DNA of 64,000 nucleotides from NCBI GenBank assembly GCA_963818475.1, contig CAWFSF010000005.1:608001-672000 (forward strand), written 5' to 3'. The notes under the pieces are model-generated. The model ran no database searches. It had not been told where the DNA came from and was given only the letters and a program-made list of their open reading frames with translations. Shown in pieces: positions 418-35,953 of this stretch. This DNA comes from Nitrospirota bacterium (lineage in GTDB: Bacteria; Nitrospirota; UBA9217). Each line of letters opens with the position of its first letter. Within the stretch, counting starts at the first letter, position 1. The position numbers and the translations under genes were made by a program.

Positions 418-589
418 GCCGATACGTTGTCCGGTCATGAACCCTCCCGGGAATCGACCAGAACGGTCACGGGCCCGTCGTCCAGGAACCGAGGAAATTG
501 ACCTCCTATAGTCCCCTTATAAACGGTTTTACACTAAATGCATCAACGTATGAAAAAGTGCCAAAAGCTTTAAGTTTCTCATGATTTCA

Positions 590-1075: not shown

Positions 1076-1117
1076 GACATTCTTCCCCCTATCAATCATC
1101 TTTAGAGCTACCACTTT

Positions 1118-1861: not shown

Positions 1862-1871
1862 AAGTGTCCTC

Positions 1872-2536
1872 TTATTCACTGAAACGGTTAATTTCCTGGA
1901 TAACCTGTAGTAACCTTTTGATCGCTTGTTTTTATCTTCCGGACATTCTTCTTCAAGACTGCAACGTCCTTCGACTCGTATGAGTTTAAGACAATCGTAT
2001 GTTCCTTTTCTCTCGTTGACGTCTATCCGTGACAATGCAGTCACAGTGCTCTGGAGTTTTTTAGCGAACAGTTTGGCCGTATAATCACAAAATAGCTCAC
2101 TCACTGCGCCATCCGAATGAACAACACCGATCAAGATTTTTTCAATGGCTCTTTCGTTGCCCTTCAAAGCTATTTCCGCCCAGTGCGCTCCACTGACGTA
2201 TAAAAATCTTGGCGTAAAGCGTTTCAACTCAATATTTTCATATAGGTCACGCATGATCCCGTTAGAGTCAACAGGAAACTTGTCCACATATTGATCCTCA
2301 TATTTTTCAGAAGCCGCCAAATAAAGAGCCAGAGAGTATGCTCTTGTAAGAGTTGAATTGTTCAATCTCTCGATCTCTATTTTCAAACTTTCTAATGCCT
2401 GTACGTTACGAACTTTGGCATAATTAAATACTTTTGCCAGATAAGTATCCGTTTCATTCGACTCCGTCTCGCCATGCGCTAATTGCAAGCCGACTAACAT
2501 GCAAAATAACAAAGTAAGTAAAATAATCGTTTTCAT
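1872..2536 (-). CDS. Putative periplasmic immunity protein for the upstream Rhs tip (probable frameshift near the 3' end)
   Basis: Signal peptide MKTIILLTLLFCMLVGLQLAHG; AT-rich; directly downstream of the Rhs C-terminus. Confidence 0.6.
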
Positions 2537-2572
2537 TTTTCCTCTCACCCTCTATACCATAAAGAGAGGTCG

Positions 2573-18451: not shown

Positions 18452-18531
18452 GGGACTCTCCTATCCTGAAGCGTAGCAAAAAACGAACATCGGGGACGTT
18501 GTTGCTATTTGATACATGAATCTCACATGGT

Positions 18532-19500
18532 TTATTTCGACCGTTCCATAGCCTTCGTGATCGCCGACGTACCGACTCCTACATAACGGGCGATCGCAGC
18601 CGCCGACAGCCCCAGTTCGTCTCTGCCGCGCCTGGCAATGGTCGCCCTCGTACTGCTAACCTCCCTGCGCCTACCGCCGCCCTGCAATTCAAGCGGATTG
18701 ATGCCGCTCCTGCGGCACTCCTCCTCGATAATCGTTCGTATGGTTTTCCCTGCTCGCTTATGCTTGAGTTGACGCAGGTAAAGCTTTTCTGTTTCTTTCA
18801 GCACCTGGCTGACGAATTCGCCGCCGCCCAGGATGCGCTGATCAAAGTCCTCTTGCTGCCCTCTCCGTCTCATGCCCAGCACCTGCGACCATCCGCCCTG
18901 GCTCCGGAGAAGACCACCGCCGGTCAGTTCCGCGAGTTGTCCCTGACCAACGCCCTCCTGCATAAATCGGCGATATCCCTTGAGGGCCTTGCTGCGGGTG
19001 CCTCCGAATTGCGCCAGAACGTTTGCGATATCCATCCAGGGATATTCCGCCTTGCCGATGATCGCCCGGTGGCCACTCCAGGGATAGCGGTCCAGTTCCT
19101 CGATCATTTTGACGATGCCGGCCCGGATGGGATTGAGATGGATATAGCGGACAAGAGCCAGCAGGTAGTTATCTTCATCGCACAGGATGGACTTGTATCG
19201 GTTCTCAAACAGGTGACCTGTGCGCTGATGGCGTCGGTTGAAGTATTGTGCGTACCAGGTGAGGAGTTTGCGCATGACGCCGGATATGCCGTTCTTTCCG
19301 CTTTTGAAAAGGAGATGGACATGATTGTTCATGAGGACCCAGGCGTAGACACTGCTATTCCCCTCGCACACATTCAGGCCAAGTCGCTCAAGGAACAGGC
19401 GCCTGTCCTGGTCGTCCACGAAGATGTCGGTCTTATTAATTCCGCGTATCATGATGTGGTGCAAGGCACCGGGGACATCGAGTCGAGCTTGTCGTGGCAT
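18532..19500 (-). CDS. REP-associated-type tyrosine transposase (Y1_Tnp) with C-terminal HTH (DnaA_C-like)
   Basis: MPRQAR, HHIMIRG, LMNNHVHLL (HUH), GHLFENRY, YIHLNP (catalytic Tyr), YPWSGH. Confidence 0.9.
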   Translation of the reverse strand: MPRQARLDVPGALHHIMIRGINKTDIFVDDQDRRLFLERLGLNVCEGNSSVYAWVLMNNHVHLLFKSGKNGISGVMRKLLTWYAQYFNRRHQRTGHLFENRYKSILCDEDNYLLALVRYIHLNPIRAGIVKMIEELDRYPWSGHRAIIGKAEYPWMDIANVLAQFGGTRSKALKGYRRFMQEGVGQGQLAELTGGGLLRSQGGWSQVLGMRRRGQQEDFDQRILGGGEFVSQVLKETEKLYLRQLKHKRAGKTIRTIIEEECRRSGINPLELQGGGRRREVSSTRATIARRGRDELGLSAAAIARYVGVGTSAITKAMERSK

Positions 19501-19506
19501 GTCTGT

Positions 19507-19535
19507 ATACTATGGAAATGCGGGGCTACTGTCAA
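19507..19535 (-). promoter_or_regulatory. Sigma70 promoter giving a probably leaderless transposase mRNA
   Basis: TTGACA-17 nt-TAGTAT-6 nt-ATG. Confidence 0.7.
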
Positions 19536-19574
19536 GCATTATATCAATTAGCAACAACGTCCCCAAAGTTCTCC

Positions 19575-20459
19575 GATCTCTTCCGTGAGCCTGTTCCCCT
19601 CGGAGTCATAGGTATAGTTGATGCTGTTTCCAAGACTATCACTGATGCTGGCGAGATTGCTGTTGGCATCATACCCGTAGGCTATGGTGTTGCCTTCCGG
19701 CAGGGTAATATGATCGATCTTGTTCGCCCCTCCGCAGGACGTGCATCCTCCCGCGACGTAGACATATTGCGTAGGGCTGGCGTCACCTGCTGCCGTGACC
19801 GTAAGCACCCGTCCGCTATCGTCATAGGTATAGGCAGTGCTGTTGCCGTTCGGGTCAAGGACGTTTCGGGGGTTGCCGAGAGCGTCGTGGTTGCTGTAGG
19901 TCGTTGTGCCGATAATGGGCTGGGTCGTTGAGGTCAGAAACCCTGTCATGAAGTCATAGACATAGCTCGTAACGTCCGTCACATCGGTCCTGGGGCCGTC
20001 GATGCTCGTGAGCTTGCCGTTGGTATAACCATAGGTCGTGGTATAGGAGTAGGCCGTGCCGCTGCCCAGAAGCCCGGCGTCGGTCGTGGTCAGGAGATTG
20101 CCGGTGGTATTGTCATAGGTGTTGGTGACGATCTTGTTTTGATTCGGGTCGACAACGCTTGCTACGATCTCCTGGGCCACCTTGTGGAACGTGGCCGCTG
20201 TAGCTTGCGGATCGATCTCATACTGGTAGATGTACGTCGTGGTCTTCTGAATAGCAGCCCAATCACTCGGGCTGGGTTTGCTTGCCTCTGTTTTGGTCTT
20301 CAGGTTGCCGTAGGTGTCGTAGGTGAAATCAGTGGCTGATCTGAGCACAAGGACCGGCACGGACACCGTTCCCGTGTTTTCCCAGTATTCTTCGCGGGTG
20401 ATTTTTGTCAGGGCATTCCGGGTATAGATTATGACATTGCCCCGGGAGTCGGTCTCTTT
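19575..20459 (-). pseudogene. Orphan Rhs core fragment, cut at the transposase TIR
   Basis: Highly similar to about 28000-28887 of the full Rhs; similarity ends at ...RLTEEI, 10 bp from the TIR. Confidence 0.85.
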
Positions 20460-20632
20460 AGGAATCGGAGGAATTTATTGTAGTCGGCAGTTTCTCTGAA
20501 GATCTGCTGGCGCTGGTTCCCCCCCGCGTAATCACGTGGTAGAAGGCACCTTCAAACTCGATGCGGGGTTTCCGTGGCATGCGGAGAGACAATCACTCGA
20601 AGGGGAGAATGTCAATTCTAAAGTCTGACCCC
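20460..20632 (-). mobile_element. Left end of a second Y1 transposase element (GGGGTCAGAC terminus plus the first ~40 codons)
   Basis: MPRKPRIEFEGAFYHVITRG.NQRQQIF...; near-identical to 24053-24223. Confidence 0.8.
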
Positions 20633-20680
20633 AATACCTCCCAATACCTCCCGGCGACGGGATGATTCGGGGAACTCCAG

Positions 20681-21028
20681 CTATTTTAATTCTCGTTGAA
20701 GCATTGCTTTCTTGTAGGTTACCTCAATATAGCCATCTATTAAGTACAGTCTAAAGCAGCCACCGTTCTTACACTTCTTTGCGTAACCATTGCTTATATT
20801 ACCAGCGCCGATATTATCTTTAAGTTCAGCTAAATCACAATTGATGGATATTGTATTTACTTCCTTAAAAACAAGTTTGTGATATACCCTTTTTGTTGCG
20901 TCGTCGGAATCAGGATAAACATATACTTCAACAGTCATATTCTGCAACATGCGTTTCCTGTCACTGAATGCCAGCGAAATGCCGTACAGTACTCCATCAT
21001 GCCAGACAATATCATCAATTGTTTTCAC
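20681..21028 (-). CDS. Putative cytoplasmic immunity protein (Imm50-like WHD motif)
   Basis: Follows the orphan Rhs tip; AT-rich; no signal peptide; N-terminal VWHDGVL. Confidence 0.6.
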   Translation of the reverse strand: MKTIDDIVWHDGVLYGISLAFSDRKRMLQNMTVEVYVYPDSDDATKRVYHKLVFKEVNTISINCDLAELKDNIGAGNISNGYAKKCKNGGCFRLYLIDGYIEVTYKKAMLQRELK

Positions 21029-21059
21029 AAGCTCTCCTTAACACTTCTGTCTTAGCTCT

Positions 21060-24052
21060 TTAAAAAGCAAACACAACTACAGCAGGGGGATATAAAACAC
21101 AGATTCCAATTGCAACAGCTGCACCCCCTATGACTATACTTCTCTGACAATTAGTGCCACACCTAGCCGGCTCTGGCTGTCGATTTGGTTCTGGTTGGAA
21201 TCCATTTCTACGAGCGCAATCCAATATTCCTCCCGGGGCATCTCCATAATTACCACCATGTGAGGTGCCGCCAAATTCACCCATTGCACCACTTGATCCA
21301 CGACACTCCCAGTGCAGATGACGTCCGTTACCAACAGCATCACCGTCAATTCTTATCCTGCAGCCGCCGCCACAACTAATCCATTGTCCACTACGATGTG
21401 CAAGACCTTGCGGATCGGCGAAATTAACGGGGGCATTTTCCACATAAACATACAGATGCTTGATATCGTCAAGATGGTTCGCCGGGTTAGGGTCGCTATA
21501 TTTATATGTAAATGTGGAATAGACACCAGTGCTTAGTGGGTCAGCCTCGATGTATTCTACCGATCACCTGGTTATAGTCACGATTAAGGTTATAATTTAG
21601 CCCCGTCTCAGCGTCGTAGTACTGCCCTGGGAATCTCAGGTTATTTGTGATCGTGCTGACCGTGATCGTCGCTTCTCCGAAGGGTTTGTAGTCCGCAGAC
21701 CAAACGACCGTGCCGGAAGCGTCCGTCATCTTCTGCGGGGTGGCAAGATGATCGTTGTGATAGTAGTACGTATTCGCCCCTTCCATCTTAGCCAGCGGTT
21801 GACCATTGAAGTATACATATTCTACTGCGATTGTACCAGCACTATTCGACTCTGCAATGATCTGTCTACTCAGGCTGTAATGGAATATCGTGGTTGCTCC
21901 ATTCACGACCTTCTTCACCCGCTGCCCGTTGCCATTGTAAGTGTAGTTGGCCGTCGTTGCCCCGTCATTCACCTGGATCAATCTCTGGTTCTGATTATAG
22001 ACATACTGCCGAGCAGCTTCTGTTGTCGTATTCCCGTTATTATCGTATCCAAAGGACTTTCCATTGGCTGTGTTCAGCTTGTTTGTATTCTGGATAGTAC
22101 GTATAGGCACCTGCATTTTCAGTCTGCCTGTTCCCTACCCCGTCATAGGTCCAGGCCAAACTGCCCCATATGCCCGATGATGTGGCTGTCCAAAGTCGAT
22201 CAAGATTATCGTAGCTGAAGCTCTTGTTCTTTGAAGCATCGAGGCTGTCCGTAATGGCCGTTATGTTCCCATTGCTGTCATATCCGGTATAGCTGAGGCT
22301 CAGTACCGACCCTGCTGTTACGGAACTGACCCGATACTGGTTGTCGTATCCGATGGTGCCGCTCAAGCCATTGCCATAGGTGATCGCATTCATCCCGCCA
22401 AAGGGCTTGTAAGTGATATTCGATGCGAGATTGGCTGCACCGTTCAGAACGGTCACTGCGCGGTCGTTGGTGTAGTTGTACGTAATGACCTTGCCTGACG
22501 GATAGGTCATGGTCTTCAGGTTCCCGTTCATGTCGTAGGTGTATTGCGTGACGTACTGAACGCTGTCGATGGCCTTGGTCTCTTTTTTGACCTGCCCCTT
22601 TGGGGTGTACTCATAGGCAGCCGTGCCTGCTGCATCGGTCATGCTGAGCAGAGACGGCCCTTGCCGTTCGCGCAGGTGTCATAGGAATAGACCGTGTCAG
22701 TGTCAGACGGATAAGTCGATTGTCGTCAGTCGATTCAACGCATCATAGACATAAGTGATGGTTACGCCATTCGCGGCGGTCTTTGAGATCAGGTTCCCGG
22801 CGGGATCGTAGCCGTAGGTCGTTGTGCCGGTGTCGGGCGAGATGACCTGGTAGACTCTACCTTTGTCGTCGTAGATGTAGGTGGTGGCATTGTTGTTGGC
22901 ATCGGTTACCGTGGTCAGGTTGTTGTTGGAGTTGTAGCCGTAGCCGGTAGTAATCGTGCCGGGCTGGATGGTTGCTATCAGCCGGCTCAGCGCGTCATAC
23001 GAGTACGTTGTGAGCGTCGAGTTCGGAGTTCGGAAAGAGAGCCTATTGCCTCTGGAGTCATATGAGTATTCGGTATAGCTGGCATCGGGATTGGTAGTCC
23101 TCTTCAGCCTGTTCAAAGCATCATACTGGTAGCTCAGGCTCCTCTGGAGGCTGTTGCCCGCATCCCTGATCTCTTCCGTGAGCTTGTTGCCCTCGGAGTC
23201 ATAGGTATAGTTGATGCTGTTTCCAAGACTATCACTGATGCTGGCGAGATTGCTGTTGGCGTCATATCCGTAGGTTATGGCGTTCCCTTCCGGCAGAGTA
23301 ATATGATCGATCTTGTTCGCCCCTCCGCAGGAGGTGCAGCCTCCCGCGACGTAGGCATATTGCGTGGAGCCGGTGTCGCCTGCTGCCGTGACCGTAAGCA
23401 CCCGTCCGCTATCGTCATAGGTATAGGCAGTGCTGTTGCCGTTCGGGTCAAGGACGGTCCGGGGGTTGCCGAGAGCGTCGTGGTTGCTGTAGGTCGTTGT
23501 GCCGATAATCGGCTGGGTCGTTGAGGTCAGGAACCCGGTCATAGGGTCATAGGCATAGCTCGTAAGGTCCGTCACATCGGTCCTGGGACCGTCGATGCTC
23601 GTGAGCTTGCCGTTGGTATAGCCATAGGTCGTGGTATAGGAGTAGGCCGTGCCGCTGCCCAGAAGTCCTGCCTCGGTCGTGGTCAGAAGATTGCCGGTCG
23701 CATTGTCATAGGTGTTGGTGACGGTCTTGTTCTGATTCGGGTCGACAACGCTTGCTACGATCTCCTGCGCCAGTTTATGGAACGTGGCCGAGGTGGCTTG
23801 TGGGTCGATCTCATACTGGTAGATGTACATCGTGGTCTTCTGAATGGCGTCCCAGTCGCTCGGGCTGGGTTTGCTTGCCTCGGTCTTGGTCTTCAGGTTG
23901 CCGTAGGTGTCATAAGTGTAATCGTTGGCTGATCTAAGCACAAGGACGGGTACGGAAGGACTTCCCGTGTTTTCCCAGTATTCTTCTCGGGTGATCTTGG
24001 CCTGGCTGTTTCTTGCATAGGTCGTGACATTCCCGAGGGTGTCGGTCTCTTT
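21060..24052 (-). pseudogene. Orphan Rhs module (core plus a distinct toxin tip), frameshifted and lacking an N-terminus
   Basis: ORFs 22703-23941, 22040-22642 and 21541-22116 match the full Rhs core; tip follows PVNFADPQG (21060-21443). Confidence 0.85.
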
Positions 24053-24223
24053 AGGAATCGGAGGAATTTATTGTAGTCGGCCGTTTCTCTGAAGATCTGC
24101 TGGCGCTGGTTCCCCCGCGTAATCACGTGGTAGAAGGCACCTTCAAACTCGATGCGGGGTTTCCGTGGCATGCGGAGAGACAATCACTCGAAGGGGAGAA
24201 TGTCAATTCTAAAGTCTGACCCC
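24053..24223 (-). mobile_element. Left end of a Y1 transposase element fused to the Rhs core
   Basis: GGGGTCAGACTTTAGAATTGACA terminus; ATG 24171 MPRKPRIEFEGAFYHVITRGNQRQQIFRETADYNKFLRFL. Confidence 0.8.
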
Positions 24224-24239
24224 AATATGCCTTGCCTGA

Positions 24240-25227
24240 GTGTCCGTGCTGTTTTTTCGTAAAACTCAGAATTCAAGAGCGCCTCTTCGCCCGCGCAATT
24301 GCCTTTGCAATGCTGGACGTATTCACCCCGACATGCCGCGCGATCTCGGCGAGCGGCGAACCCAGTTCATCAATGCATCGCTTGGCTATGTTCATCCGAA
24401 GCACGCTCACCTGTTTTCTTCGGCCGCCGTTCTTAAGCTCAACAGGGCTTATCTGCGCCTTTCACACCTTCGTCGATGATCGATGCGATGGTCTTTCCGC
24501 TTCGGCGTATTTTCAACTGGCGTTTAGTCTTTTCCTCGGTTTCCTTGAGGATCGCATTCACGAAATCGCCGCCACCAAGAATCCGCTCATCAGATTCTTC
24601 TGGTGTTCCCGTCCTTCGGGCAGACAGGACCTGGGACCAGCCGCCCTTGCTTCTGATCAGTCCGCCGCCGGTAAACTCCGGATTGTGCCCCATGCTCATG
24701 CCTTCCGCAATGAATCGGTGATATGCGTTCGGGCAGCTCTCTTGCGCGAGCCAAACTGGTTCAGGACGTAATCCGTGTCCATCCATTCGTGATTTGTTTT
24801 GCCCATGACGGCCCGATGGATAAAGCACGTTTTCTTGAACGGCTCGGCCAGAACGTCATAGATGGACAATCTCGACCCGAAATACCTCAACCAGGGGGTT
24901 AGTAAGGCATAGGCCGGACTGAAAATTGAATTTCGACGTAGAGAGCCCGGGACACAACGTTGAGGCGAATGACCTCGTGAGGGACAATACAGGGCCTCTC
25001 ATAGAACTTGAGAATCTGGATAAGGGATGCTTGGCGGCAACGGCACGCCGGATATTTATAACGCTTAGAGAGCAAGTTCGCTTTACGTGAGAAAATCGTC
25101 GAAGAAAATGCTGATGTCCGAACAGGACGCATGGGTGAAATGCGTCTTCAAGAAAAACCGTCTGTTATCGTATTGGAATTTCAGCGAAAGCAAGTTGCAC
25201 TTGACAAGGGGGCTATAGGATAACCCC
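24240..25227. mobile_element. Degenerate Y1 transposase element (longer version of 1118-1861)
   Basis: Transposase C-half on - (HRAVMGK..WMD...GGWSQVL), short N-terminal piece on + (DKARFLERLGQNV), and a shared ~255-bp segment ending in AACCCC. Confidence 0.75.
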
Positions 25228-25240
25228 AAGATGCGCGTTA

Positions 25241-25532
25241 CTCGCAGCGAGAGTTTGCCGCCGAGGTTGGGATATCTCAAAGGATGGTGGTCTACTACGA
25301 GAAGGCGAGCGAACGCATACCGCTGCAGCTGCTGCCGGTGTTCGCTAAAGTGCTGCGGGTTTCTTCAGATCAACTGTTTGGGATCGAAACGGTGAAGGGC
25401 AATGGCCGGACGCACGATAACCGCCTCTGGCGGCGGTTCAGCCAGGTGGAAAAGCTGCCGCCGCCGAAGCGTAAACAGATCGTGCAGATTCTCGATGCGT
25501 TCCTGGAAAGTGAGAAGGTAAAGAAGGGGTAG
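25241..25532 (+). pseudogene. XRE-family HTH regulator, 5'-truncated
   Basis: YSQREFAAEVGISQRMVVYYEK...LAKVL-like helix, then LPPPKRKQIVQILDAFL; upstream part replaced by the element end. Confidence 0.7.
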
Positions 25533-25560
25533 GGGCTGAAATAACGCACCGTGTTTGCTT

Positions 25561-26010
25561 CTATTTTTTCTCATTATTGTTTGAAAACCACTTCATCATG
25601 ATCACTTGAACGCAGCCCTGTTCATTTCTATCCAGCGAAATCGTTAGTTGATCAGAAGAAACACGCCAAACCTTCGGTCCAATCTTTTTATTGTTCAACT
25701 TATCTACCGCCCACTTTCCATAAAGACTATCAATTTCACTTTTCACAACTTCAAACTTCACTTGTTCGCCAAACGTAAACATTAAGCCAACAACTATACC
25801 TTCTCTCAAATCAATGGATATTTCATCTGGAAAAGCAGCATGTGCTTCTTGATTCCTCTTATCGAAGAATGAAACACCTTCGGCTATTTTAGAGCCAATT
25901 ACGCCAGGATTTGGTAAAAAAAGGGCGTCAGCCGCAATAGCCATCTTATTAGCTAAAAATAATCCCAATATAGAGAGCAGTATAGCTGAACGCTTGATTA
26001 CTATTTGCAT
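25561..26010 (-). CDS. Putative periplasmic immunity protein of the Rhs
   Basis: Overlaps the Rhs stop; signal peptide; AT-rich. Confidence 0.65.
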   Translation of the reverse strand: MQIVIKRSAILLSILGLFLANKMAIAADALFLPNPGVIGSKIAEGVSFFDKRNQEAHAAFPDEISIDLREGIVVGLMFTFGEQVKFEVVKSEIDSLYGKWAVDKLNNKKIGPKVWRVSSDQLTISLDRNEQGCVQVIMMKWFSNNNEKK

Positions 26011-29000
26011 GCCTTATCGCATCCTTTCTCACACCATTTTTTTGCATCGCCTTCAAGCGAATCGCAGATGCAATGACATAAAGCTACATCCTTCATTGGA
26101 TTCTTCGCAGAAAAGCAAGCATTACATTTTTTCAAGCACTCATCAAAATCTGTAATAGGTTGGCAATAGCAATAACATCTATCGTTACTGTTCGGGAATT
26201 TATTACATCCCTGCATGTAGGCAGTAACAGAGTTTCTTCCATCGGGATCAATTTTGTTTAGTGGATTATTTTCTGTGTACAGATAAAGACTTAAATCACT
26301 AATAATTCCCGGATGGGGACGACGAAGACTGAGTCTTAAACGTGAAGCAGTCATCTGAATGAGGCCCGTATTCCAAGGGTCCGGTTCGACGTATCTTCCA
26401 ATTACCGGATTATAGTCTCTGAAGTAATTGTAGTGCAGTCCTGTTTCAACATCGAAGTACTGCCCAGGGAACCGGAGGTTATTCGTGATCGTGCTGACCG
26501 TGATTGTCACTTCGCCGAACGGCTTGTAGTCCGCCGACCAAACAACCGTCCCGGAAGCATCCGTCATCTTCTGCGGTGTGCCTAAATGATCGTTGTGGTA
26601 GTAGTACGTATTCGCCCCCTCCAGTTTTGCCAGCGGCTGACCATTCAAGTATACATATTCCGCTACGATAGTTCCAGCACTATTCGACTCTGCAATGATC
26701 TGTCCACTCAGGCTGTAATGGAATATAGTGGTTACTCCGTTCACGACCTTCTTCACCCGCTGACCGTTGCCATTGTAAGTGTAGTTAGCTGTCATTGATC
26801 CGTCATTCACCTGAATCAATCTCTGGTTTTGGTTGTAGACATACTGGCGAGCAGCTTCTGTTGTCGTATTCCCGTTGTTGTCGTACCCGAACGCTATTCC
26901 ATTGGCAGTGTTCAACTTGTTGGTATTCTGATAGTACGTATAGGCATTCGTATTCTCGGTCTGCCTGTTCCCCACTCCATCGTAAGTCCAGGTCAAACTG
27001 CCCCATATGCCCGTCGATGTGGCTGTCCAAAGCCGGTCAAGGTTATCGTAGGTAAAGCTTTTGTTCTTTGAAGCATCGAGACTGTCCGTAATGGCTGTTA
27101 TGTTCCCATTGCTGTCATATCCGGTATAGCTGAGGTTCAGTACACCCCCTGCTGCTATGGAGCTGATCCTATACTGGTTGTCGTATCCGATCGTGCCGCT
27201 CAGGCCATTGCCGTAGGTGATCGCATTCATGCCGCCGAAGGGCTTGTAAGTGATATTCGATGCGAGGTTGGCGGCACCATTCAGAACACTGACTGCCCTG
27301 TCGTTGGTGTAGTTGTAGGTGGTCACCTTGCCTGACGGGTAGGTCATGGTCTTCATGTTCCCGTTCATGTCGTACGTGTATTGCGTTACGTACGTCACAG
27401 TGTCGATTACCTTGGTCTCTTTTTTGACCTGTCCTTTTGGCGTGTATTCGTAGCTGGTCGTTCCTGATGCATCGGCCATGGAACAGAGACGGCCCTTGCC
27501 GTTTAAGCAGGTGTCGTATGAATAGACCGTGTCTGTATCTGCCGGATAGTTGATGGTCGTCAACCGATTCAGTGCGTCGTAGGTATAGGAAATCGTGACT
27601 CCCTTTGCGTCGGTTTTAGTCAGGAGATTCCCTGCCGGGTCATACGAGTATGTCGTCGTACCGGTGTCCGGGGAGATGACTTGATAGACCCTACCTTTGT
27701 CGTCGTATACGTAGGTGGTGGCGTTATTGTTGGCATCGGTGACCGTGGTCAGGTTGTCGTTTGAGTTGTAGCCGTAGCCGGTAGTGACCGTTCCGGGCTG
27801 GATAGTTGCTACCAACCGGTTCAGCGCGTCATACGAGTAAGTTGTGAGCGTTGAGTTCGGAGTTCGGAGTGAGAACCTATTGCCTCGTGAGTCATAGCCA
27901 TACTCGGTGTAGCTGCTGTCAGGATTCGTGGTCCTTTTAAGCTTATTCAGGGCATCGTACTGGTAGCTCAGGCTCTTCTGGAGGCTGTTGCCTGCGTCCC
28001 TGATCTCTTCCGTGAGCCTGTTCCCCTCGGAGTCATAGGTATAGTTGATGCTGTTGCCAAGGCTGTCGCTGATGCTGGCGAGATTGCTGTTGGCATCATA
28101 GCCGTAGGTTATGGTGTTCCCTTCCGGCAGGGTAATATGATCGATCTTGTTCGCCCCTCCGCAGGAGGTGCACCCTCCGGCGACGTAGACATATTGCGTA
28201 GGGCTGGTGTCACCTGCTGCCGTGACCGTAAGCACCCGTCCGTTATCGTCATAGGTATAGGCAGTGCTGTTGCCGTTCGGGTCAAGGACGTTTCGGGGAT
28301 TGCCGAGGGCGTCGTGGTTGCTGTAGGTCGTTGTGCCGATCAGCGGCTGGGTCGTTGAGGTCAGATACCCGGTTGTCGGATCATAGGCATAGCTCGTAAG
28401 GTCCGTCACTTCGGTCCTGGGGCCGTCGATGCTCGTGAGCTTGCCGTTGGTATAACCATAGGTCGTGGTATAGGAGTAGGCCGTGCCGCTGCCCAGAAAC
28501 CCGGCATCGGTCATGGTCAGGAGATTGCCGGTCGCGTTGTCATAGGTGTTGGTGACGGTCTTATTCTGATTCGGGTCAACTACGCTTTTTTCGATCTCCT
28601 GGGCCAGTTTGTGGAACGTGGCAGTTGTGGCTAACGGGTCGATCTCATACTGGTAGATGTACGTCGTGGTCTTCTGAATAGCAGCCCAGTCGCTTGGGCT
28701 GGGTTTGCTTGCCTCTGTTTTGGTCTTCAGGTTACCGTAGGTGTCGTAGGTGTAATCGTTGGCTGATCTAAGCACAAGGACGGGTACGGAGACAGTTCCT
28801 GTGTTTTCCCAGTATTCTTCCCGGGTGATCTTTGTCTGGCTGTTTCTTGCATAGGTCGTGACGTTGCCTACGGTGTCGGTCTCTTTTACGACCTGTCCGT
28901 TCTCGCCGAATTCTACGGTCCGAATGTTCGTGTTCAGGACCGTGCCGGAGCTGTCTTTGATCGTGGTCGTGACTTTTGTCTTTGTATAAGGCGTGATGTA

Positions 29001-29978
29001 CTCGAAGTCGATTACGCCTGTTCCGTGGGTCTGTTTGGTCACCCGTCCGTTGGTATAGGTATTTACATACTCGCCCTTTCCTTCGTCCACGCTCGTCATG
29101 AGATGCATGTTGTTGGGATTGGTATATCCGTAGGTGATGCTTGCCTCGGGGCCGGTGACGGAGGTAAGGTTGCCGATGTTGTCGTGGCCGTAGTTAACTG
29201 TCCTTCTGCTGTCGGTGATGCTGCTGAGCCTGCCGTTAAGGTCGTATGCGAAGGTTACTTGCGCGCCGGTCAGGTTCCCGGAGGCGTTTTTTTCCTCTAT
29301 TTTGTAGATCTTGTAATCGTAAGCCACGATGAGCGGGGTCGTCCCGACATTGTAGAGCAGAAGGCCCATGAGACCGTCACGGACCTGGGCGGTATAGGTG
29401 ATCGTGATGGAGGCTCCTGTTGCGTCTATAAGCTGGATAAGCCGGCCCTGGGGATCATAAATGTCCCTGGCCCCGCTTTTGTCGGTGAAGGTGTAGCTGT
29501 CGTCAGCGTTCTGGACAAGGGTGCCGCTTTCGCCGAGGGGAGTGATGTAGCCTCCTACGCTCCAGGTGAACCGCCGTTTCCAGCCGCATTCTTTTCTGAG
29601 GGTGACGGAGCCGTCGGGGTAGGTGTAGAGTCTGCGGTCGTAGTTAACTGCCCAGCCGTAGCCCAGGGGGCTGTCGTAGCCGGAGCGGCTGTTGTAGATC
29701 CGCCGAACCGCGATGGGGTAGAGGTTTCCGATGGTAAGATCGGTGCGGGAGGTGGTTTCAGCGCCGGCCAGCAGGTTGATGGGTTTGCCGGCAAGGCCGG
29801 GGATATAGCCGTTCATGCTGGGTGCAGGGTCGTCTGCGCAGGCGGCGATGTCGTCGGTGTCATTCATGACGGCATCCTGCCTGGTGGCGCTTTCCGAAAC
29901 CGCTAGTGCATGGGCAACATCCGGGACATAACCCGAAATGAGAACTGCAAGCAGCAATAAACCTGTCAACCTACGCAT
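26001..29978 (-). CDS. Rhs/YD-repeat polymorphic toxin with Sec signal peptide, DUF6531-like domain and Cys-rich tip
   Basis: MRRLTGLLLLAVLISG..AHA; GKPINLLAG; YD repeats; LRFPGQYFDVETGLHYNYFRDY; PLNKIDPDG cleavage motif. Confidence 0.92.
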   Translation of the reverse strand: MRRLTGLLLLAVLISGYVPDVAHALAVSESATRQDAVMNDTDDIAACADDPAPSMNGYIPGLAGKPINLLAGAETTSRTDLTIGNLYPIAVRRIYNSRSGYDSPLGYGWAVNYDRRLYTYPDGSVTLRKECGWKRRFTWSVGGYITPLGESGTLVQNADDSYTFTDKSGARDIYDPQGRLIQLIDATGASITITYTAQVRDGLMGLLLYNVGTTPLIVAYDYKIYKIEEKNASGNLTGAQVTFAYDLNGRLSSITDSRRTVNYGHDNIGNLTSVTGPEASITYGYTNPNNMHLMTSVDEGKGEYVNTYTNGRVTKQTHGTGVIDFEYITPYTKTKVTTTIKDSSGTVLNTNIRTVEFGENGQVVKETDTVGNVTTYARNSQTKITREEYWENTGTVSVPVLVLRSANDYTYDTYGNLKTKTEASKPSPSDWAAIQKTTTYIYQYEIDPLATTATFHKLAQEIEKSVVDPNQNKTVTNTYDNATGNLLTMTDAGFLGSGTAYSYTTTYGYTNGKLTSIDGPRTEVTDLTSYAYDPTTGYLTSTTQPLIGTTTYSNHDALGNPRNVLDPNGNSTAYTYDDNGRVLTVTAAGDTSPTQYVYVAGGCTSCGGANKIDHITLPEGNTITYGYDANSNLASISDSLGNSINYTYDSEGNRLTEEIRDAGNSLQKSLSYQYDALNKLKRTTNPDSSYTEYGYDSRGNRFSLRTPNSTLTTYSYDALNRLVATIQPGTVTTGYGYNSNDNLTTVTDANNNATTYVYDDKGRVYQVISPDTGTTTYSYDPAGNLLTKTDAKGVTISYTYDALNRLTTINYPADTDTVYSYDTCLNGKGRLCSMADASGTTSYEYTPKGQVKKETKVIDTVTYVTQYTYDMNGNMKTMTYPSGKVTTYNYTNDRAVSVLNGAANLASNITYKPFGGMNAITYGNGLSGTIGYDNQYRISSIAAGGVLNLSYTGYDSNGNITAITDSLDASKNKSFTYDNLDRLWTATSTGIWGSLTWTYDGVGNRQTENTNAYTYYQNTNKLNTANGIAFGYDNNGNTTTEAARQYVYNQNQRLIQVNDGSMTANYTYNGNGQRVKKVVNGVTTIFHYSLSGQIIAESNSAGTIVAEYVYLNGQPLAKLEGANTYYYHNDHLGTPQKMTDASGTVVWSADYKPFGEVTITVSTITNNLRFPGQYFDVETGLHYNYFRDYNPVIGRYVEPDPWNTGLIQMTASRLRLSLRRPHPGIISDLSLYLYTENNPLNKIDPDGRNSVTAYMQGCNKFPNSNDRCYCYCQPITDFDECLKKCNACFSAKNPMKDVALCHCICDSLEGDAKKWCEKGCDKACK

Positions 29979-30021: not shown

Positions 30022-30591
30022 CTATTCCTTGCACTGGCCGCAATCAGTATCGCCGCAGCACGGGTCGGGATTATTGCAACAAGAGTCTTTACCGCAGCAA
30101 GGATCAGGACTTCCACAACAAGGGTCTGGATTTTCACAGCACCTATCAACGCTCGGATCACAAGGGCATCTCCATTCATCAATCGACAGAACAACCGCGA
30201 TTAAGCCAAAAGGTGAACCATTTGTATTCCAACAGTTCGAGAGATCGATATTGGCGTTACCGCATGTTCCTGTATGTCCGGGTGTATAATCGGGTTGCAC
30301 TACACACCAGCCACTGGGATCCGGACAAATGCGCGTTCCCGGTTTAACTCGAGATCGGTCGATTACAGCGGTCCACGTAGTTTTTATAGAACCATTAGTG
30401 TAAGTGCCGTTTGTTACACCGCACGAATTAGTCCATGCATCATTAACACGTTCTAATGTTGCGGTATTTGTGCATATTCTTTCCCATTGACAGCTATCAG
30501 CGGCCATAGCAGAAGATGCAACTATGAATAAATAAGACACGGCGAGAAATAACGCGATTAATTGGTTTATAATTTTAATTCTCATTGACAA
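30022..30591 (-). CDS. Secreted Cys-rich protein with (P)DPCC-repeat tail
   Basis: Signal peptide ending SAMA; tail CPCDPSVDRCCENPDPCCGSPDPCCGKDSCCNNPDPCCGDTDCGQC. Confidence 0.75.
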   Translation of the reverse strand: MSMRIKIINQLIALFLAVSYLFIVASSAMAADSCQWERICTNTATLERVNDAWTNSCGVTNGTYTNGSIKTTWTAVIDRSRVKPGTRICPDPSGWCVVQPDYTPGHTGTCGNANIDLSNCWNTNGSPFGLIAVVLSIDEWRCPCDPSVDRCCENPDPCCGSPDPCCGKDSCCNNPDPCCGDTDCGQCKE

Positions 30592-30700: not shown

Positions 30701-33700
30701 CTAATTAGTGATCGTCACCGTTGCCCGAGCTTCACCAATCGCACCACTGACAGGATTAGTAGCACGAATCAGCACAGTATTAACGCCAGAGTACCGCGTC
30801 GATATTCTTTTTTCTGTCGTGTCTGTCGCATCAAGCATATTCCAGATAACATCGTGATAACCAGCTGCTTGAAGTTCATCATCCACCACAGTAACTGCAG
30901 AACCACTCTGCGGTGATACCGTAATCGTTACTCTTGCCTCACGAGAGAGGTTATACTGAAGGTGTGTTAATTGTCCATAAATGGGGTCTAGAGCGTAAGG
31001 ATCCGTTTTAGCTTGAAGTATTTTCGGGGTGTCTCCTGTTGTAATAATATAGTTCTCACTCATAATTGATGGCATAAAGCAAGCTGCCACACCACATCCA
31101 TTAACAATAGAGCCGTTTGTGTCTCGCACGTCCCAGTCAAAACTATAAGTTCCTGGCGCAAACGCAAGACCACTAATCAAATTATAATTTGCATTTTGCC
31201 CTAAAATATTTAAATAAACCCTTCCAGGCTGATTTAGTGTGTAGGTTACAGTCAGTGGATCGTTTTGCACTGGATTACAGCTGCTATCTTGAGAACATAT
31301 AATCGTCCCTGCGTGATATAGTGGCGCTGGATCGTAAGTTGCACTCGTTTCGCCATCTCCCGCAGATAAAACATATAAATATGCTTCATCCGGAACGATA
31401 TTGCCAAGGCTATCGTGACCATCCCAGGTAAAGGGGTACACTCCACCCGCAGGACAGTTCTTGGTGTCCTGGTAGACCGGCGCACCTGTTGACCCCTTGC
31501 TCTCGGGAATAATCTTGATGGTAGCTGTAGCGGCCCGGTTCAAGGTAAAGTAGATCGTTGAAGACTCTGACTTTTCCGTATTTATGACATTGTTGCTGAT
31601 ATTAACGGACAAAATTACTATCGCCTCCAGCCTTATCAACGATGAAGCAGGCGTCGTATTCCCCGCGGTGTCTTCTGCAGTGGCCACAAATAAGTTGTCA
31701 CCCGCTGCTAATTTAGTTATTGAGCAGCTCCAGGTCGTCGGCGTCGGATAGGTGACCGGTCCCACTACAGCAGGGGTATCTACCGTGATCTTAATTATCG
31801 CATTAGATTCCATGGTCCCGGTTATCGTCTGACTTGCGGTATATGTCGGGGACGTCACGGGATCCATGCTGAGCATAGGCGGAACCGTATCAACCAGGAA
31901 ACCTGCTTCGGCGAAGCCCAATTTACCGATGCTGTTCACCGCTTCTACTCTTACGGTGTGCGTCCCGGAGGATAAGAGGTCAAGATTGCTTCCGGACACT
32001 TTTGACACGACGGTTCCATCGACTTTGACCATGACGGTGCCGTTGCTTACTGAATAGTTTAAGAGCGGTGCATTTTGGTTCGTTGCTCCCACTGGGGAGA
32101 CGATATATACTGACGGCGCAATTGCGTTATAACCGGCTGTAATTTCCTCATCGGTCAAAGCTCGGTTATAAACAGCGACTTCATCGATGAGACCGTTGAA
32201 ATATTGCCCAGCGCTGCCCAGCGTGCCGATCCGAATCTCACCATTATGTGTATCTACCGTGCCAGTGGGACTCGACTGTACAAACTGGCCGTTCATGAAA
32301 TATTTAACGGTGCCAGCCCCATCATAGGTAAATGCCACCTGGTTCCATGTATTTAGTGCAGCCACTGATCCTGTGGTCTGAGCAGTATTAAACGGCATCA
32401 TTTGCAAATGTAGCCGTCCGGAGGAATTGACATAGAACAGTTCGACGTAGTTGATATTCTGTTCTCCATAAACGAATATCCCGTTATAGCTTTTGTTAAT
32501 GAATGGCTTGACCCAGGCCGTAAACGTCCGTGGGCTGTTACCAATAGGCAAGTTTTTTCCTAATGCGCGATACAAATATTTGACTGATCCATCGAACTGC
32601 GCGGCAGCAGTGCCATCTCTTTTATCGCCATTACCGTTGCTAAATATTGAGCCAACCACCGTCAGGTTATTGCCGTTGCCGGATGCGTCGAGCCCATCCC
32701 CGTCCAGGTGCCAGAACGCGACAAGGCTTCTATTAAGCGTTGCGAACACGGATGTCGTGTTTCCCGCCATGTCTGCAGCCACGGCAGTAACAACATTCGT
32801 CCCGAGCGCCAAACCAGTTATGGTGCAGCTCCACGTTGTTGCCGTTGGATAAGAGACCGGACCGGCTAAGGCGGTGGTGTTTACTGACACCGATATGGTC
32901 GCACCCGTCTCCATTATGCCTGTTACCATATACGTAGTCGAAATGACTGAATTGATCTGATCTATGCTCACAAAAGGCGCGGTTGTATCGACGGTGAAAC
33001 TCACCTCGGCAAAGCCGGGGTTTCCAGCGGTGTCCGTGGCTTCCACGCGGAGCGTATGCGGGCCGTCGAGCAGCGGATCCAACGTAGCCCCGGACACTTT
33101 TTGGACGACTGCTCCGTCCACCATTACAATAACGCTGCCATCGCTCACCGTGTATGAGAGAAGCGGCGTTTTATTATTAGTTGTCCCCGCGGCAGGAGAC
33201 GTAATGATAACTTCGGGTGCGGCCCTATCCAGTGTAATCGTAGCGGCATATGCGCCCGACCAGTTTCCCGCTGCATCCTTGAACATCACCGAGACGGTCT
33301 TAGTCCCGTCTTCCGCCGAGAGCGTCCAGGTCTTTGTTGTCGCATAGGGCTCTGGAACGGACCATGCTGCGTCCTCATTTCTAAACTGCATCTCGGCGAT
33401 ATTGCTCGCATCCAGTGCTGTCAAGCCGAGGGTCACCGTTGCATTGTTTGTGGCAATCGCTCCATCGTTGATCACAATATTCCCTGATGCGATCTGATAC
33501 GGCGTCGTTTCCCTGGAGATTACGCCATTCCCAAGCTGGCCTGACGCGTTATAGCCCCAAGCCCAGAGCGAACCGTTGGATTTTCGCGCTACGGTGTGGT
33601 ATTGACCGTTCGCAATAGACACCCACACATTTTCAACTCCAATCCGGGTCGGTACATGCTTGTCTGTGGCGGTGCCGTCTCCCAGTTGACCATAACAATT

Positions 33701-35953
33701 ATTGCCCCACGCCCAGAGGGATCCGTCTGATTTGAGTGCTGTGGTGTGAAACTGGCCTGCGACAATATGCGTCCACGCGGCATCGGTCCCGATTTGCACC
33801 GGGGCAAGCCTGGTTGTTGTAGTGCCATCGCCCAATTGACCGTTGGCGTTGAGGCCCCACGCCCAGAGCGTGCCATCCGTTTTCAATGCAACTGTATGGG
33901 CCGCGCCGGCGGCGATCACTGACCACGTTGTCTCGCCGCCTATGCGAACAGGGGAAAGTCTCTGAACGTTGGTTCCGTCTCCAAGCCGTCCGCTCGAGTT
34001 GACGCCCCACGCCCAGAGAGACCCGTCTGATTTGAGTGCGATGGTGTGGTAAAGACCAGCTGCAACATGCGTCCATGTTGTATCTGTGCCTATTTGGGCT
34101 GGAGTAGCCCTGTTCGTCGTGGTGCCGTCGCCCAATTGACCGTTGTTGTTCTGCCCCCAGGTCCAGAGTGTCCCGGATTGCAATGCTACGGTATATGCCG
34201 TCCCCGTTGAAACAGCTGACCAGTTGTCGGCAAGCCCTACTTGCATGGGCGAGGTTTTATCAATATTCGTGCCGTCACCCAGCTGTCCATTCGCGTTTTC
34301 ACCCCATGCCCATAGCGTACTGTCCGACTTCAACGCCATTGTGTGTGTGCCCCTTGCCGAGATCACCGCCCAGTTCGCATCGCTCCCGATCTTGACCGGA
34401 ACAGTTCGCTTAGTTCTCGTGCCGTCTCCCAACTGCCCAGAGTCGTTATTTCCCCACGACCACAATGTTCCATCGTTATTTAAAGCTGTGGTATGTGCCC
34501 CCCCTGCTGCGGCCATGGACCAGGAAGTATCAAATCCTATCTGAACAGCAGTAGAGCTATTGGCGCTGGTGGCCTTACCTAACTGCCCGTAGGAATTATC
34601 ACCCCAGACGGATAGGGTGCCGTCGGTTCTTAGGGCGATGGTATGCCAGTTCCCTCCCGAGACCGCAGTCCACGTCATCCCAGTACCTACCTGTACCGGC
34701 GTGCTGCTGTTCGTCGTGGTGCCATTGCCCAGCTGCCCCGCATTATTATACCCCCAGGTCCAGAGGGTGTTGTCTGACTTCAAGGCCGTAGTATAACCAC
34801 TTCCCGCTGCGACGAAGGACCACGTCGTCCCGCTCCCGACCTGCACAGGGAAATATTTGTTTACGTTGCTGCCGTCGCCCAGTTGGCCCGCATTGTTATA
34901 ACCCCATGCCCAGAGGGTGCCATCCGATTTTAGCGCGATACTGTGAGAGCCTCCAGCCGCGATCGAAATCCAGGTGCTGTTGGTCCCGACCTGGACCGGT
35001 GCATTTATTGCTACTGTCGTGCCGTCGCCCAGTTGCCCGGCATTGTTATACCCCCACGCCCACAGTGTCCCGTCCGATTTGAGGGCCAACGTGTGCTGTC
35101 CGCGTGTCGAGATCGCCGACCAATTGGTGTCACTCCCGATTCTGACCGGAGAATTTCGATCAGTAGTCGTGCCGTCGCCCAGCTGCCCTGCATTGTTATA
35201 CCCCCACGCCCACAGCGTCCCGTCCGTCTTCAAGGCGACTGTGTGTGCGCCTCCTGCCGTAATCGCCGCCCAGTTTGCATCGTTTCCGATCTTGACCGGC
35301 GCGGTCCTCTGCGTTGAGGTGCCGTCTCCCAAGCGACCGTTTGCGTTCCCCCCCCACGCCCATAAAGTCCCATCGGATTTCAACGCGATTGTATGTGCGC
35401 CCCCTGGCGAGATTGCCGTCCAATTCATATCGTTCCCGACCTGCACAGGGAAATATTTGTTTACAATGCTGCCATCGCCCAGTTGACCGTTACCATTGCT
35501 TCCCCAAGCCCACAACGACCCATCGGACTTTATAGCCGTGGTATGATACGCGCCGGCGACTATCTTTATATAAACGTTCTCTGTCGGCGGCGTGGCATCA
35601 ACAGTAAACGTGACTTCTGCGAAACCGGTTTCTAAAGATGCATTCGTAGCCTCCACATGGACGGTATGTGGGCCGTCGGGCAGCGCATCAAGATTGTCTC
35701 CTGAGACCTTTGATACAACGGCGCCACCAACTCTGACAATTGCTGTACCGTCACTGACACTGTAAGAGAGCAACGGAGTATTATTGTTCCCGAGGGTTGC
35801 TGTCGGTGAAGTAATTAAAACAGACGGCGGGCTGGCGAATACGTTTGTGGTAAAAACCGGCAGGAGCATCAGGAGAGTGGTCAATATTACCATCACAATT
35901 GACTTCCGCGTGGGACGCGTTACAAAGTCATTTCGCATTCTGAGATCCGTCAT
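30701..35953 (-). CDS. Large secreted protein: 14 RCC1/BLIP-II repeats, Ig-like domains, LamG, C-terminal FlgD-Ig-like domains
   Basis: 14 copies of LWxWG.N..GQLG; FNGLIDEVAVYNRAL; FTWDG.D..G.IV. Confidence 0.85.
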   Translation of the reverse strand: MTDLRMRNDFVTRPTRKSIVMVILTTLLMLLPVFTTNVFASPPSVLITSPTATLGNNNTPLLSYSVSDGTAIVRVGGAVVSKVSGDNLDALPDGPHTVHVEATNASLETGFAEVTFTVDATPPTENVYIKIVAGAYHTTAIKSDGSLWAWGSNGNGQLGDGSIVNKYFPVQVGNDMNWTAISPGGAHTIALKSDGTLWAWGGNANGRLGDGTSTQRTAPVKIGNDANWAAITAGGAHTVALKTDGTLWAWGYNNAGQLGDGTTTDRNSPVRIGSDTNWSAISTRGQHTLALKSDGTLWAWGYNNAGQLGDGTTVAINAPVQVGTNSTWISIAAGGSHSIALKSDGTLWAWGYNNAGQLGDGSNVNKYFPVQVGSGTTWSFVAAGSGYTTALKSDNTLWTWGYNNAGQLGNGTTTNSSTPVQVGTGMTWTAVSGGNWHTIALRTDGTLSVWGDNSYGQLGKATSANSSTAVQIGFDTSWSMAAAGGAHTTALNNDGTLWSWGNNDSGQLGDGTRTKRTVPVKIGSDANWAVISARGTHTMALKSDSTLWAWGENANGQLGDGTNIDKTSPMQVGLADNWSAVSTGTAYTVALQSGTLWTWGQNNNGQLGDGTTTNRATPAQIGTDTTWTHVAAGLYHTIALKSDGSLWAWGVNSSGRLGDGTNVQRLSPVRIGGETTWSVIAAGAAHTVALKTDGTLWAWGLNANGQLGDGTTTTRLAPVQIGTDAAWTHIVAGQFHTTALKSDGSLWAWGNNCYGQLGDGTATDKHVPTRIGVENVWVSIANGQYHTVARKSNGSLWAWGYNASGQLGNGVISRETTPYQIASGNIVINDGAIATNNATVTLGLTALDASNIAEMQFRNEDAAWSVPEPYATTKTWTLSAEDGTKTVSVMFKDAAGNWSGAYAATITLDRAAPEVIITSPAAGTTNNKTPLLSYTVSDGSVIVMVDGAVVQKVSGATLDPLLDGPHTLRVEATDTAGNPGFAEVSFTVDTTAPFVSIDQINSVISTTYMVTGIMETGATISVSVNTTALAGPVSYPTATTWSCTITGLALGTNVVTAVAADMAGNTTSVFATLNRSLVAFWHLDGDGLDASGNGNNLTVVGSIFSNGNGDKRDGTAAAQFDGSVKYLYRALGKNLPIGNSPRTFTAWVKPFINKSYNGIFVYGEQNINYVELFYVNSSGRLHLQMMPFNTAQTTGSVAALNTWNQVAFTYDGAGTVKYFMNGQFVQSSPTGTVDTHNGEIRIGTLGSAGQYFNGLIDEVAVYNRALTDEEITAGYNAIAPSVYIVSPVGATNQNAPLLNYSVSNGTVMVKVDGTVVSKVSGSNLDLLSSGTHTVRVEAVNSIGKLGFAEAGFLVDTVPPMLSMDPVTSPTYTASQTITGTMESNAIIKITVDTPAVVGPVTYPTPTTWSCSITKLAAGDNLFVATAEDTAGNTTPASSLIRLEAIVILSVNISNNVINTEKSESSTIYFTLNRAATATIKIIPESKGSTGAPVYQDTKNCPAGGVYPFTWDGHDSLGNIVPDEAYLYVLSAGDGETSATYDPAPLYHAGTIICSQDSSCNPVQNDPLTVTYTLNQPGRVYLNILGQNANYNLISGLAFAPGTYSFDWDVRDTNGSIVNGCGVAACFMPSIMSENYIITTGDTPKILQAKTDPYALDPIYGQLTHLQYNLSREARVTITVSPQSGSAVTVVDDELQAAGYHDVIWNMLDATDTTEKRISTRYSGVNTVLIRATNPVSGAIGEARATVTITN

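Follow-up and report, generated by a model that had tools for sequence, protein, structure and literature searches.

The closest described systems

Genes for RAYT-like transposases (RAYT stands for REP-associated tyrosine transposase and REP for repetitive extragenic palindrome) that are flanked by terminal inverted repeats (TIRs) have been named TIRYTs and the elements that they form TIRtrons; the TIRs share the motif GGGGWSAS and are found singly, as dimers and in clusters, according to those parts of the original description that are drawn on here (Di Nocera et al. 2013, PMC3733652). In the portion of a later classification that bears on them, most TIRYTs are placed in subclass 2.1, with a C-terminal Bac_DnaA_C, HTH_23 or HTH_28 region (Quentin et al. 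2018, PMC6006769). Elements of this kind, nested with debris of an IS110-family insertion sequence (IS), lie at the module boundaries of an Rhs toxin array at positions 18492-29978 of a 64,000-nucleotide stretch of Nitrospirota DNA (contig CAWFSF010000005.1, positions 608,001 to 672,000; hereafter the window, numbered from its first base). The source is a metagenome-assembled genome (MAG), 91% complete and with 6% contamination, whose closest named relatives are Nitrospirota. An earlier note on this DNA had taken the GGGG(A/T)C ends in the array for the marks of a candidate system in which a Y1 transposase family may capture, duplicate or delete Rhs tip and immunity modules. The analysis presented here turns this apparent new transposase-linked toxin-cassette system into a documented nesting of known elements in an Rhs array: the caps belong to two known kinds of IS, TIRYT/TIRtron Y1 elements and an IS1111-like member of the IS110 family.

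Repeat-targeting members of the IS1111/IS110 group are on record, again as given in the parts of the sources used: IS621, ISPa11 and ISPpu9 in REP sequences (PMC11208160, PMC11187229, PMC8450116), and IS4321/IS5075 in the TIRs of Tn21-family transposons, just as IS621 and ISPa11 target REPs (PMC11208160, PMC11187229). An IS1111-type layout places the sequence encoding the guide RNA downstream of the transposase gene (PMC11208160, PMC11187229).

The array itself has the make-up of a polymorphic toxin locus of the Rhs type, as judged from its predicted proteins: RHS repeats, core, variable tip, small downstream open reading frame (ORF) and 5'-truncated orphans. Orphan rhs-CT/rhsI and cdiA-CT/cdiI modules are displaced by homologous recombination. 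The window locus shares with these its 5'-truncated cores, alternative tips and candidate immunity genes downstream of the expressed gene; it differs in that its orphan truncation is a fusion to the left end of an IS, common to three copies. The H-rpt sequences of the Rhs elements of Escherichia coli, which we take to be of the ISAs1 type, offer a further comparison: there, as here, Rhs arrays contain displaced partial cores and IS-like DNA for which transposition has not been shown, whereas the element there is of DDE type and the debris here consists of nested HUH/Y1 and IS110-family remains. In E. coli the H-rpt sequences lie in the C-terminal tips, as stated in the part of the source used (PMC3032704).

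Two kinds of insertion sequence at the module boundaries

Read along the - strand, the upper part of the array comprises a full Rhs gene, a 149-aa ORF, a helix-turn-helix (HTH) gene of XRE type (on the + strand), a TIRYT half-terminus, a fragment of the IS110-family element, and parts of two TIRYT elements, T2 and the left end of T3; the lower part continues with an orphan Rhs core, a new tip, a 115-aa ORF, tandem decamers, a second T3 end, a core-only Rhs fragment, the intact TIRYT element T1 and a macro-domain gene. T1 (- strand) has 30-nt TIRs, at 18485-18514 and 19542-19571, that are 90% complementary and enclose a perfect inverted 16-mer, GGGGACGTTGTTGCTA, at 18492-18507 and 19549-19564. 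Alignment with the paralogous Rhs cores places the end of Rhs homology ~10 nt outside the T1 GGGG, and T1 therefore spans about 18485-19571. The transposase gene lies at 18532-19500 (-), and Pfam Y1_Tnp recognises its 322-aa product with E 5.3e-11 (43 bits, the cut-off being 23), with HUH in the form H60-V-H62 and a tyrosine, Y119, in RYIHLNP, which we take to be the catalytic motifs.

T1 is not a RAYT proper: its protein does match the NCBIfam REP-associated tyrosine transposase model NF047646, but at 68.4 bits, under the cut-off of 80, and its flanks are TIRs instead of REP hairpins. Nor does it belong with IS200/IS605, which have subterminal hairpins and no TIRs, a judgement made on the long TIRs of T1. 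Three paralogs in the same genome (C1:262718-263794, C5:529796-530877 and C6:903234-904301; 66-80% protein identity) and the relatives examined likewise have long TIRs flanking the gene. Homologs of the T1 protein are called RayT by their sources, and many carry Bac_DnaA_C (PF08299) or HTH_23 (PF13384). The C-terminal region of the T1 protein has no Pfam HTH match at E<=0.01; that of the 80%-identical paralog matches HTH_23. The likeness to TIRtrons comprises a RAYT-like HUH/Y1 transposase, TIRs that start with GGGG, additional TIR copies that stand singly, in doublets and in clusters, and, in the paralog and homologs, a C-terminal HTH. The TIR of T3, GGGGTCAG, fits GGGGWSAS, and that of T1, GGGGACGT, matches its positions 1-6 and departs from it at positions 7-8. 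The GGGG(A/T)C end appears to correspond to this published motif and to be no new signal. Two features set the present copies apart, their concentration in Rhs arrays and the tandem repeats of flank and terminus that precede many of their left ends; neither is mentioned in the portions of PMC3733652 and PMC6006769 drawn on here. A promoter scan finds a promoter-like site at the left end of T1 (19535-19507) and nothing clear at the left end of T3. Elsewhere in the genome, inverted doublets of T1-type TIRs, 54-62 nt apart, at C2:794126/794180 and C6:1941194/1941256, have the look of non-autonomous derivatives of MITE-like (miniature inverted-repeat transposable element) or REPIN-like kind.

T3 is present in the window only as left ends. 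The decamer GGGGTCAGAC, exact at 20623-20632 and 24214-24223, opens in both places a 172-nt stretch with 88-89% identity to the left end of an intact T3 in G003, a genome of the same genus; that element measures 1008 bp, with 26-nt TIRs and a 316-aa transposase. Neither an intact T3 nor any T3 right end was found on searching the window genome. One fragment (24053-24223, -) retains these first 172 nt, comprising the 26-nt TIR and the start of the transposase gene, and is fused to an Rhs core; the other, with the same T3/Rhs junction (20460-20632, -), comes after two tandem decamers, GGGAGGTATT x2, at 20633-20655, so that the feature as a whole occupies 20460-20655. T2 is a decayed TIRYT transposase gene at 24240-24871 (-), corresponding to residues ~144-322 of the T1 protein, frame-shifted, with 5 in-frame TGA codons and with its right end truncated. 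A second T2 remnant, in the second Rhs locus of the window, extends over 1118-1604 (-): its gene portion (residues 172-322) lies at 1186-1596, in a stretch assigned to T2 (1141-1604), and is accompanied by a right end, GGGGAC at 1118-1123, with terminus plus flank duplicated.

The bases read in the earlier note are present at all seven of the positions that it listed, and its contention that GGGG-capped ends are genuine ends of Y1 (TIRYT) transposons, sited at module boundaries, is upheld. Two of its caps have another nature: AACCCC at 25222-25227 and GTCCCC at 1856-1861 are half-termini of six bases, each with the right end of the IS110-family element directly next to it. What it called a transposase remnant is a composite, a decayed Y1 gene (24240-24871) followed by an IS110-family right-end fragment (24872-25221).

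The short motif by itself has no such standing. GGGG[AT]C, counted on both strands, occurs 47 times in the 64-kb window. Of these copies, 7 fall in 18492-29978 and 4 in 1-4700, which corresponds to 0.61 and 0.85 per kb; the remaining 36 give the rest of the window 0.75 per kb, and the genome-wide density is 0.755 per kb. The decamer GGGGTCAGAC, with at most one mismatch, has 3 matches where 4.0 are expected, and 71 of 100 shuffles reach 3. Enrichment of the bare motif at Rhs loci is rejected on these counts: hexamer density equals background and the 10-mer count does not exceed shuffled sequence. The same counts are what a reading of the caps as chance G-rich hexamers of no common origin would have in its favour; each cited cap, however, is part of a specific match of some length (the TIRs of 30 nt, 172 nt of T3 left end, 262-350 nt of IS110-family right end), and this reading, to which next to no probability attaches, is already refuted by the extended matches. 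Only these extended matches around the GGGG caps carry meaning; short motifs alone are without signal. The remark in the earlier note that housekeeping blocks hold no such element is for the same reason valid for extended ends only, the hexamer being equally dense outside the Rhs loci.

An IS110-family element targets the TIRYT terminus

Two intact copies of the IS110-family element, each 1753 bp and 98.6% identical to one another, are located at C2:737266-739018 and C6:868554-870306. Both encode a 430-aa protein with DEDD_Tnp_IS110 (PF01548, E 1.8e-19) and Transposase_20 (PF02371, E 5.9e-16). Both are flanked by CAACGT on the left and by CCC[CT]GAGTC on the right, and the left flank of the C6 copy matches 19 nt of a T1-type TIR. 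The target deduced from these flanks is therefore CAAC[GT]CCCC, the reverse complement of GGGGACGTTG, and the corresponding target sequence in the TIRYT terminus is CAACGTCCCC. To judge from these junctions, the element integrates site-specifically into the TIRYT terminus at CAAC[GT]CCCC. The co-occurrence of two of the types of repeat is explained by this choice of target.

The partial copies bear the same signature: all six consist of just the last 42-350 nt of the element and abut GGGGAC or GGGGTT. The fragment in the array, at 24872-25221 (+), comprises positions 1393-1742 of 1753 and is 98% identical to the intact copies; next to it stands the TIRYT half-terminus AACCCC (25222-25227, -; canonical GTCCCC), presumably left by integration of the IS110-family element. 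In the second Rhs locus, a fragment comprising positions 1491-1752 (1604-1865, +) abuts the half-terminus GTCCCC (1856-1861). The outer flanks of the nine IS110-family right ends all differ. A reading of GGGGACATCCTATAGCCCCC as a left end belonging to another Y1 family is rejected: the sequence consists of an IS110-family right end and a TIRYT half-terminus. Among public sequencing runs, three of four yield contigs that continue as intact IS110-family sequence at 24872, which makes 24872 a truncation point specific to this genome; the contigs stem from relatives, and the best-matching run contains a fraction of 0.11 of the sampled words.

With ~140 nt of non-coding sequence upstream and ~320 nt downstream of its gene, the element has an IS1111-type layout. 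It resembles IS4321/IS5075, IS621, ISPa11 and ISPpu9 in its DEDD transposase, its lack of TIRs, its long downstream non-coding region and its integration into the terminal repeat of another element; it differs from them in that the target is a TIRYT terminus and in that its guide (seek/bridge) RNA is, so far, putative. An Rfam scan of the element returned no credible family, and the 3' non-coding region has only a 7-nt match to the target. In the TIRYT terminus, this IS1111-like element has a target of a new class, and it is a candidate for a natural pair of guide RNA and target. C6:907211-908762, close to a T1-type TIR, contains a diverged relative (76%); an N-terminal fragment occupies C5:529590-529754, and 42 nt separate it from a T1 right end.

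Precursor of the orphan locus and comparison with relatives

A contig of G003 (G003:C8) presents the following arrangement: an Rhs gene, an IS110-family right-end fragment, an intact T3, a 98-aa ORF and an Rhs gene of full length (1440 aa). This arrangement is the precursor state of the orphan locus. In the window genome, T3 nucleotide 172 is joined to approximately Rhs codon 365, an internal deletion of ~2-3 kb as estimated against G003. Both breakpoints of this orphan-making deletion lie away from element termini, the one 172 nt inside T3 and the other inside the Rhs core. The T3/Rhs junction is base-for-base identical in all three of its copies (C5:187k and window 20460 and 24053), which therefore had a single origin and were subsequently copied. 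Two of the copies have their upstream flank in common (GGCATATT and the IS110/T2 composite), but differ in its internal deletions; the flank of the third, at 20632, is unlike theirs. An exact scan of metagenome contigs for the junction gave 0 matches.

The locus orthologous to the lower end of the array, G003:C5, has T1 at the same site by the macro-domain gene, with 93% identity over 6.5 kb and 98% identity of the transposase. There, the T1 left end abuts an intact HTH gene and the entire block 19572-25227 is absent. The expectation that cassette breakpoints in relatives coincide with element ends is borne out in one instance, the difference from G003 that starts exactly at the T1 left end, and fails in the other, the orphan-making deletion. 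A search for an empty site in G004 and G005 showed synteny ending at the start of the macro-domain gene and the sequences diverging thereafter, so that no empty site can be defined.

The association with Rhs genes is local

The seven Rhs loci of the window genome, with 3 kb added on each side, amount to ~88 kb, or about 1.9% of the genome by our own arithmetic. Within this span lie 5 of the 12 loci that match the T1 protein, all 6 IS110-family right-end fragments and 3 of the 7 copies of the T3 TIR; these 3 alone extend past the TIR. Several of the copies are related by descent, which lowers the number of independent events to perhaps four. Copies away from Rhs genes are found in other accessory or defence contexts: after a Wadjet JetD gene, beside genes for PIN and TIR-domain proteins and beside a cluster resembling a restriction-modification system. 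Other genomes give a different picture. Among 52 loci of T1 relatives in other species, 686 kb in total, one has an Rhs match, and this is the ortholog in the relative of the same genus; of 10 metagenome loci that carry an exact T3 TIR, one has the transposase but not one has an Rhs match inside 3.5 kb. In G011, no Y1 locus lies within 20 kb of an Rhs gene. The link to Rhs is thus real in this genome and gone outside this lineage: the proposed enrichment of element ends at Rhs borders holds within the genome and does not extend across species or to the metagenome loci. The IS110-family element, by its choice of target, accumulates wherever there are TIRYT ends.

Some T3-type ends stand alone. 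The solo TIRs at C6:289449, C6:290914 and C6:872539 are followed by a common sequence that is not a transposase and then by genes for LysE-type translocators (C6:289613-289942 and C6:872706-873245); a further LysE gene, at C6:874619, stands behind a T1-like 16-mer with 3 mismatches. Another solo T3 TIR, at C2:844759, is placed 47 nt past the stop codon of the Wadjet JetD gene, so that at least one TIRYT end lies in a defence island.

Tandem repeats at TIRYT ends

In front of many TIRYT left ends stand 2-4 tandem copies of a unit 10-15 nt long, as with the decamers at 20633-20655 in the window and at the ends L029, L035 and L036, L096-L105, and L110, L111 and L115. It is made up of the directly adjoining flank and the element's first 4-10 bases, as in (GGCATCTT)n GGGGTCAGAC, and the base immediately outside GGGG is mostly T (YTT followed by GGGG). 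A strict test for tandem repeats was positive at 6 of 38 T1-like left ends from other species. At the right end of T2 in the second Rhs locus (1118-1160), terminus plus flank are duplicated as AAAGTGGTA-CGTCCCC-AAAGTGGTA, and likewise at L029, L031 and L035; tandem repeats therefore also occur at right ends. These repeats may be the footprint of cleavage and joining chemistry, and as such they offer a possible clue to the mechanism of TIRYT transposition.

Probable nested insertion and its alternatives

A fairly probable account of the locus is one of nested insertions, deletions and recombination in a tolerant, repetitive Rhs array, with the elements nesting passively. The array would act as a sink in which insertion sequences come to lie inside or next to each other. 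The order of events, as we infer it, would begin with an intact T3 upstream of a second full-length Rhs gene; an ordinary internal deletion would have fused T3 nucleotide 172 to about Rhs codon 365 and left a 5'-truncated orphan. The junction would then have reached all three of its places, for which homologous recombination or gene conversion among Rhs cores that are 87-93% identical is the likeliest route, rather than transposase chemistry. T1 would have truncated the last core fragment, and the IS110-family element would have entered the left end of T2, a later deletion taking most of both. TIRYT elements may tend to land by existing ends; a T1-type left end lies 42-47 nt inside an IS110-family right end at C6:903k and at C1:303k. 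Deletions and recombination between cores, and possibly also between element copies, would thus shape the cassettes. In this history, the module boundaries would be capped by GGGG because each boundary is the scar of an insertion or a deletion; insertion, or recombination between two element copies, suffices for boundaries that are exact to the end of an element. The elements would scar and truncate toxin cassettes, and nothing shows that they shuttle them. The locus would also provide a worked example of how a deletion in a second full-length gene, and not displacement, can give rise to an orphan Rhs cassette.

Several observations fit this history poorly. At 20632, the copy of the T3/Rhs module possesses a left flank and tandem decamers of its own and begins exactly at the T3 terminus, as mobilisation of the module from its left end would give; the difference from G003 starts exactly at the T1 left end; and local enrichment is strong, with 5 of 12 Y1 loci and 6 of 6 IS110-family fragments in ~1.9% of the genome. 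Among relatives with long contigs, G010 has a Y1 remnant 2.2 kb from an Rhs gene and G016 a Y1 gene 5.0 kb from one. Only two genomes underlie the order of events, and in a MAG the repeats at the array may be misassembled. The proposal of the earlier note, that TIRYT transposases use GGGG-capped ends to capture, duplicate or delete tip and immunity modules (for example, by mobilising a left end and the adjacent cargo in trans, or by deletions starting from an end), draws on the same facts: the start of the 20632 copy at the T3 terminus, with a different flank and the tandem-repeat signature of bona fide insertions, the breakpoint relative to G003, and the enrichment at Rhs loci. It can add that T3-type inverted repeats head several non-transposase sequences, which implies that solo or non-autonomous derivatives exist. 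The proposal is nonetheless quite unlikely. The search found no cassette with element ends on both sides; none of the Rhs modules is closed by a matching right end, in a genome that has neither an intact T3 nor a T3 right end, and the deletion that made the orphan has both breakpoints off element ends. A family-wide link to Rhs genes is lacking (the ortholog alone among the 52 loci of other species, and none of the 10 metagenome loci), the exact scan did not find the T3/Rhs junction in metagenome contigs, and recombination between element copies or between Rhs cores yields the same end-exact boundaries with no transposase involved.

IS91/ISCR elements, whose enzymes are of HUH type, capture adjacent genes by one-ended rolling-circle transposition. 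Active capture at this locus would resemble them in moving flanking DNA from one end; the protein family and the structure of the ends are different, and no evidence of read-through capture was found here. A one-ended scheme can be framed in these terms: TIRYT left ends would be handles at which a transposase acting in trans cleaves at GGGG and moves or deletes what lies inside. If this were so, the unit of T3 left end, truncated Rhs core, tip and immunity gene would be a non-autonomous carrier of cassettes and the tandem repeats of flank and terminus at left ends would be footprints of that chemistry; the scheme is very unlikely. A further alternative keeps the elements passive and lets recombination between their copies or fragments, and not between Rhs cores alone, delete, duplicate and reshuffle the cassettes in between, so that the elements serve as portable homology. 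It can point to identical or near-identical pieces in three Rhs loci (98-99% for the IS110-family right end, 100% over 116 nt of the T3 left end), to the variants at C5:187k, 609k and 632k, which differ by internal deletions of one composite, and to the contrast between the window genome (G000) and G003 at the T1 left end, which is what two T1 copies should produce on recombining with one another. The common pieces are, however, short (42-350 nt), the Rhs cores give far more homology (~2.5 kb at 87-93%), and no recombinant or hybrid element has been demonstrated; portable homology is a possible though doubtful explanation.

The Rhs array and its neighbours

The genes of the array are as the earlier note described them: a full Rhs gene, a frame-disrupted orphan with another tip, a core-only fragment and a 5'-truncated HTH gene. 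The complete toxin gene (26001-29978, -) encodes 1325 aa, with DUF6531, RHS repeats, an RHS core and a unique C-terminal tip. The 149-aa ORF directly after it (25561-26010, -), without a family match, is a candidate immunity protein by its position only. The XRE-type HTH gene (25228-25532, +) lacks ~20 codons at its 5' end, and its counterpart in G003 is an intact 146-aa ORF. The orphan core (21538-24052, -), 87% identical to 26377-28886, is split into three ORFs (412, 200 and 191 aa); its C-terminal tip (21060-21540, -) is unlike the main tip and is reached only after a change of frame. The 115-aa ORF (20681-21028, -), again without a family match, is a candidate orphan immunity gene. The core-only fragment (19575-20459, -), cut off by T1, shares about 91-93% identity with the other cores. 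Positions 20683-20699 resemble 30572-30588 over 17 nt, a similarity that on inspection was judged to be due to chance.

Directly upstream of the Rhs operon, 30701-35953 (-) encodes a 1750-aa protein with RCC1-like repeats, Laminin_G_3, FlgD_ig and Big_13; Ig/FlgD_ig proteins that resemble it also lie upstream of the Rhs array at C5:197k. A second insertion-sequence graveyard, likewise downstream of a toxin gene, occupies C6:896000-909000 (L027): a gene for a 1387-aa Rhs-repeat protein with TcdB_toxin_midN matches comes first, and behind it lie a 175-aa ORF, an IS110-family right-end fragment and a T1-type element that is intact, then part of an ISL3 transposase and a second relative of IS110.

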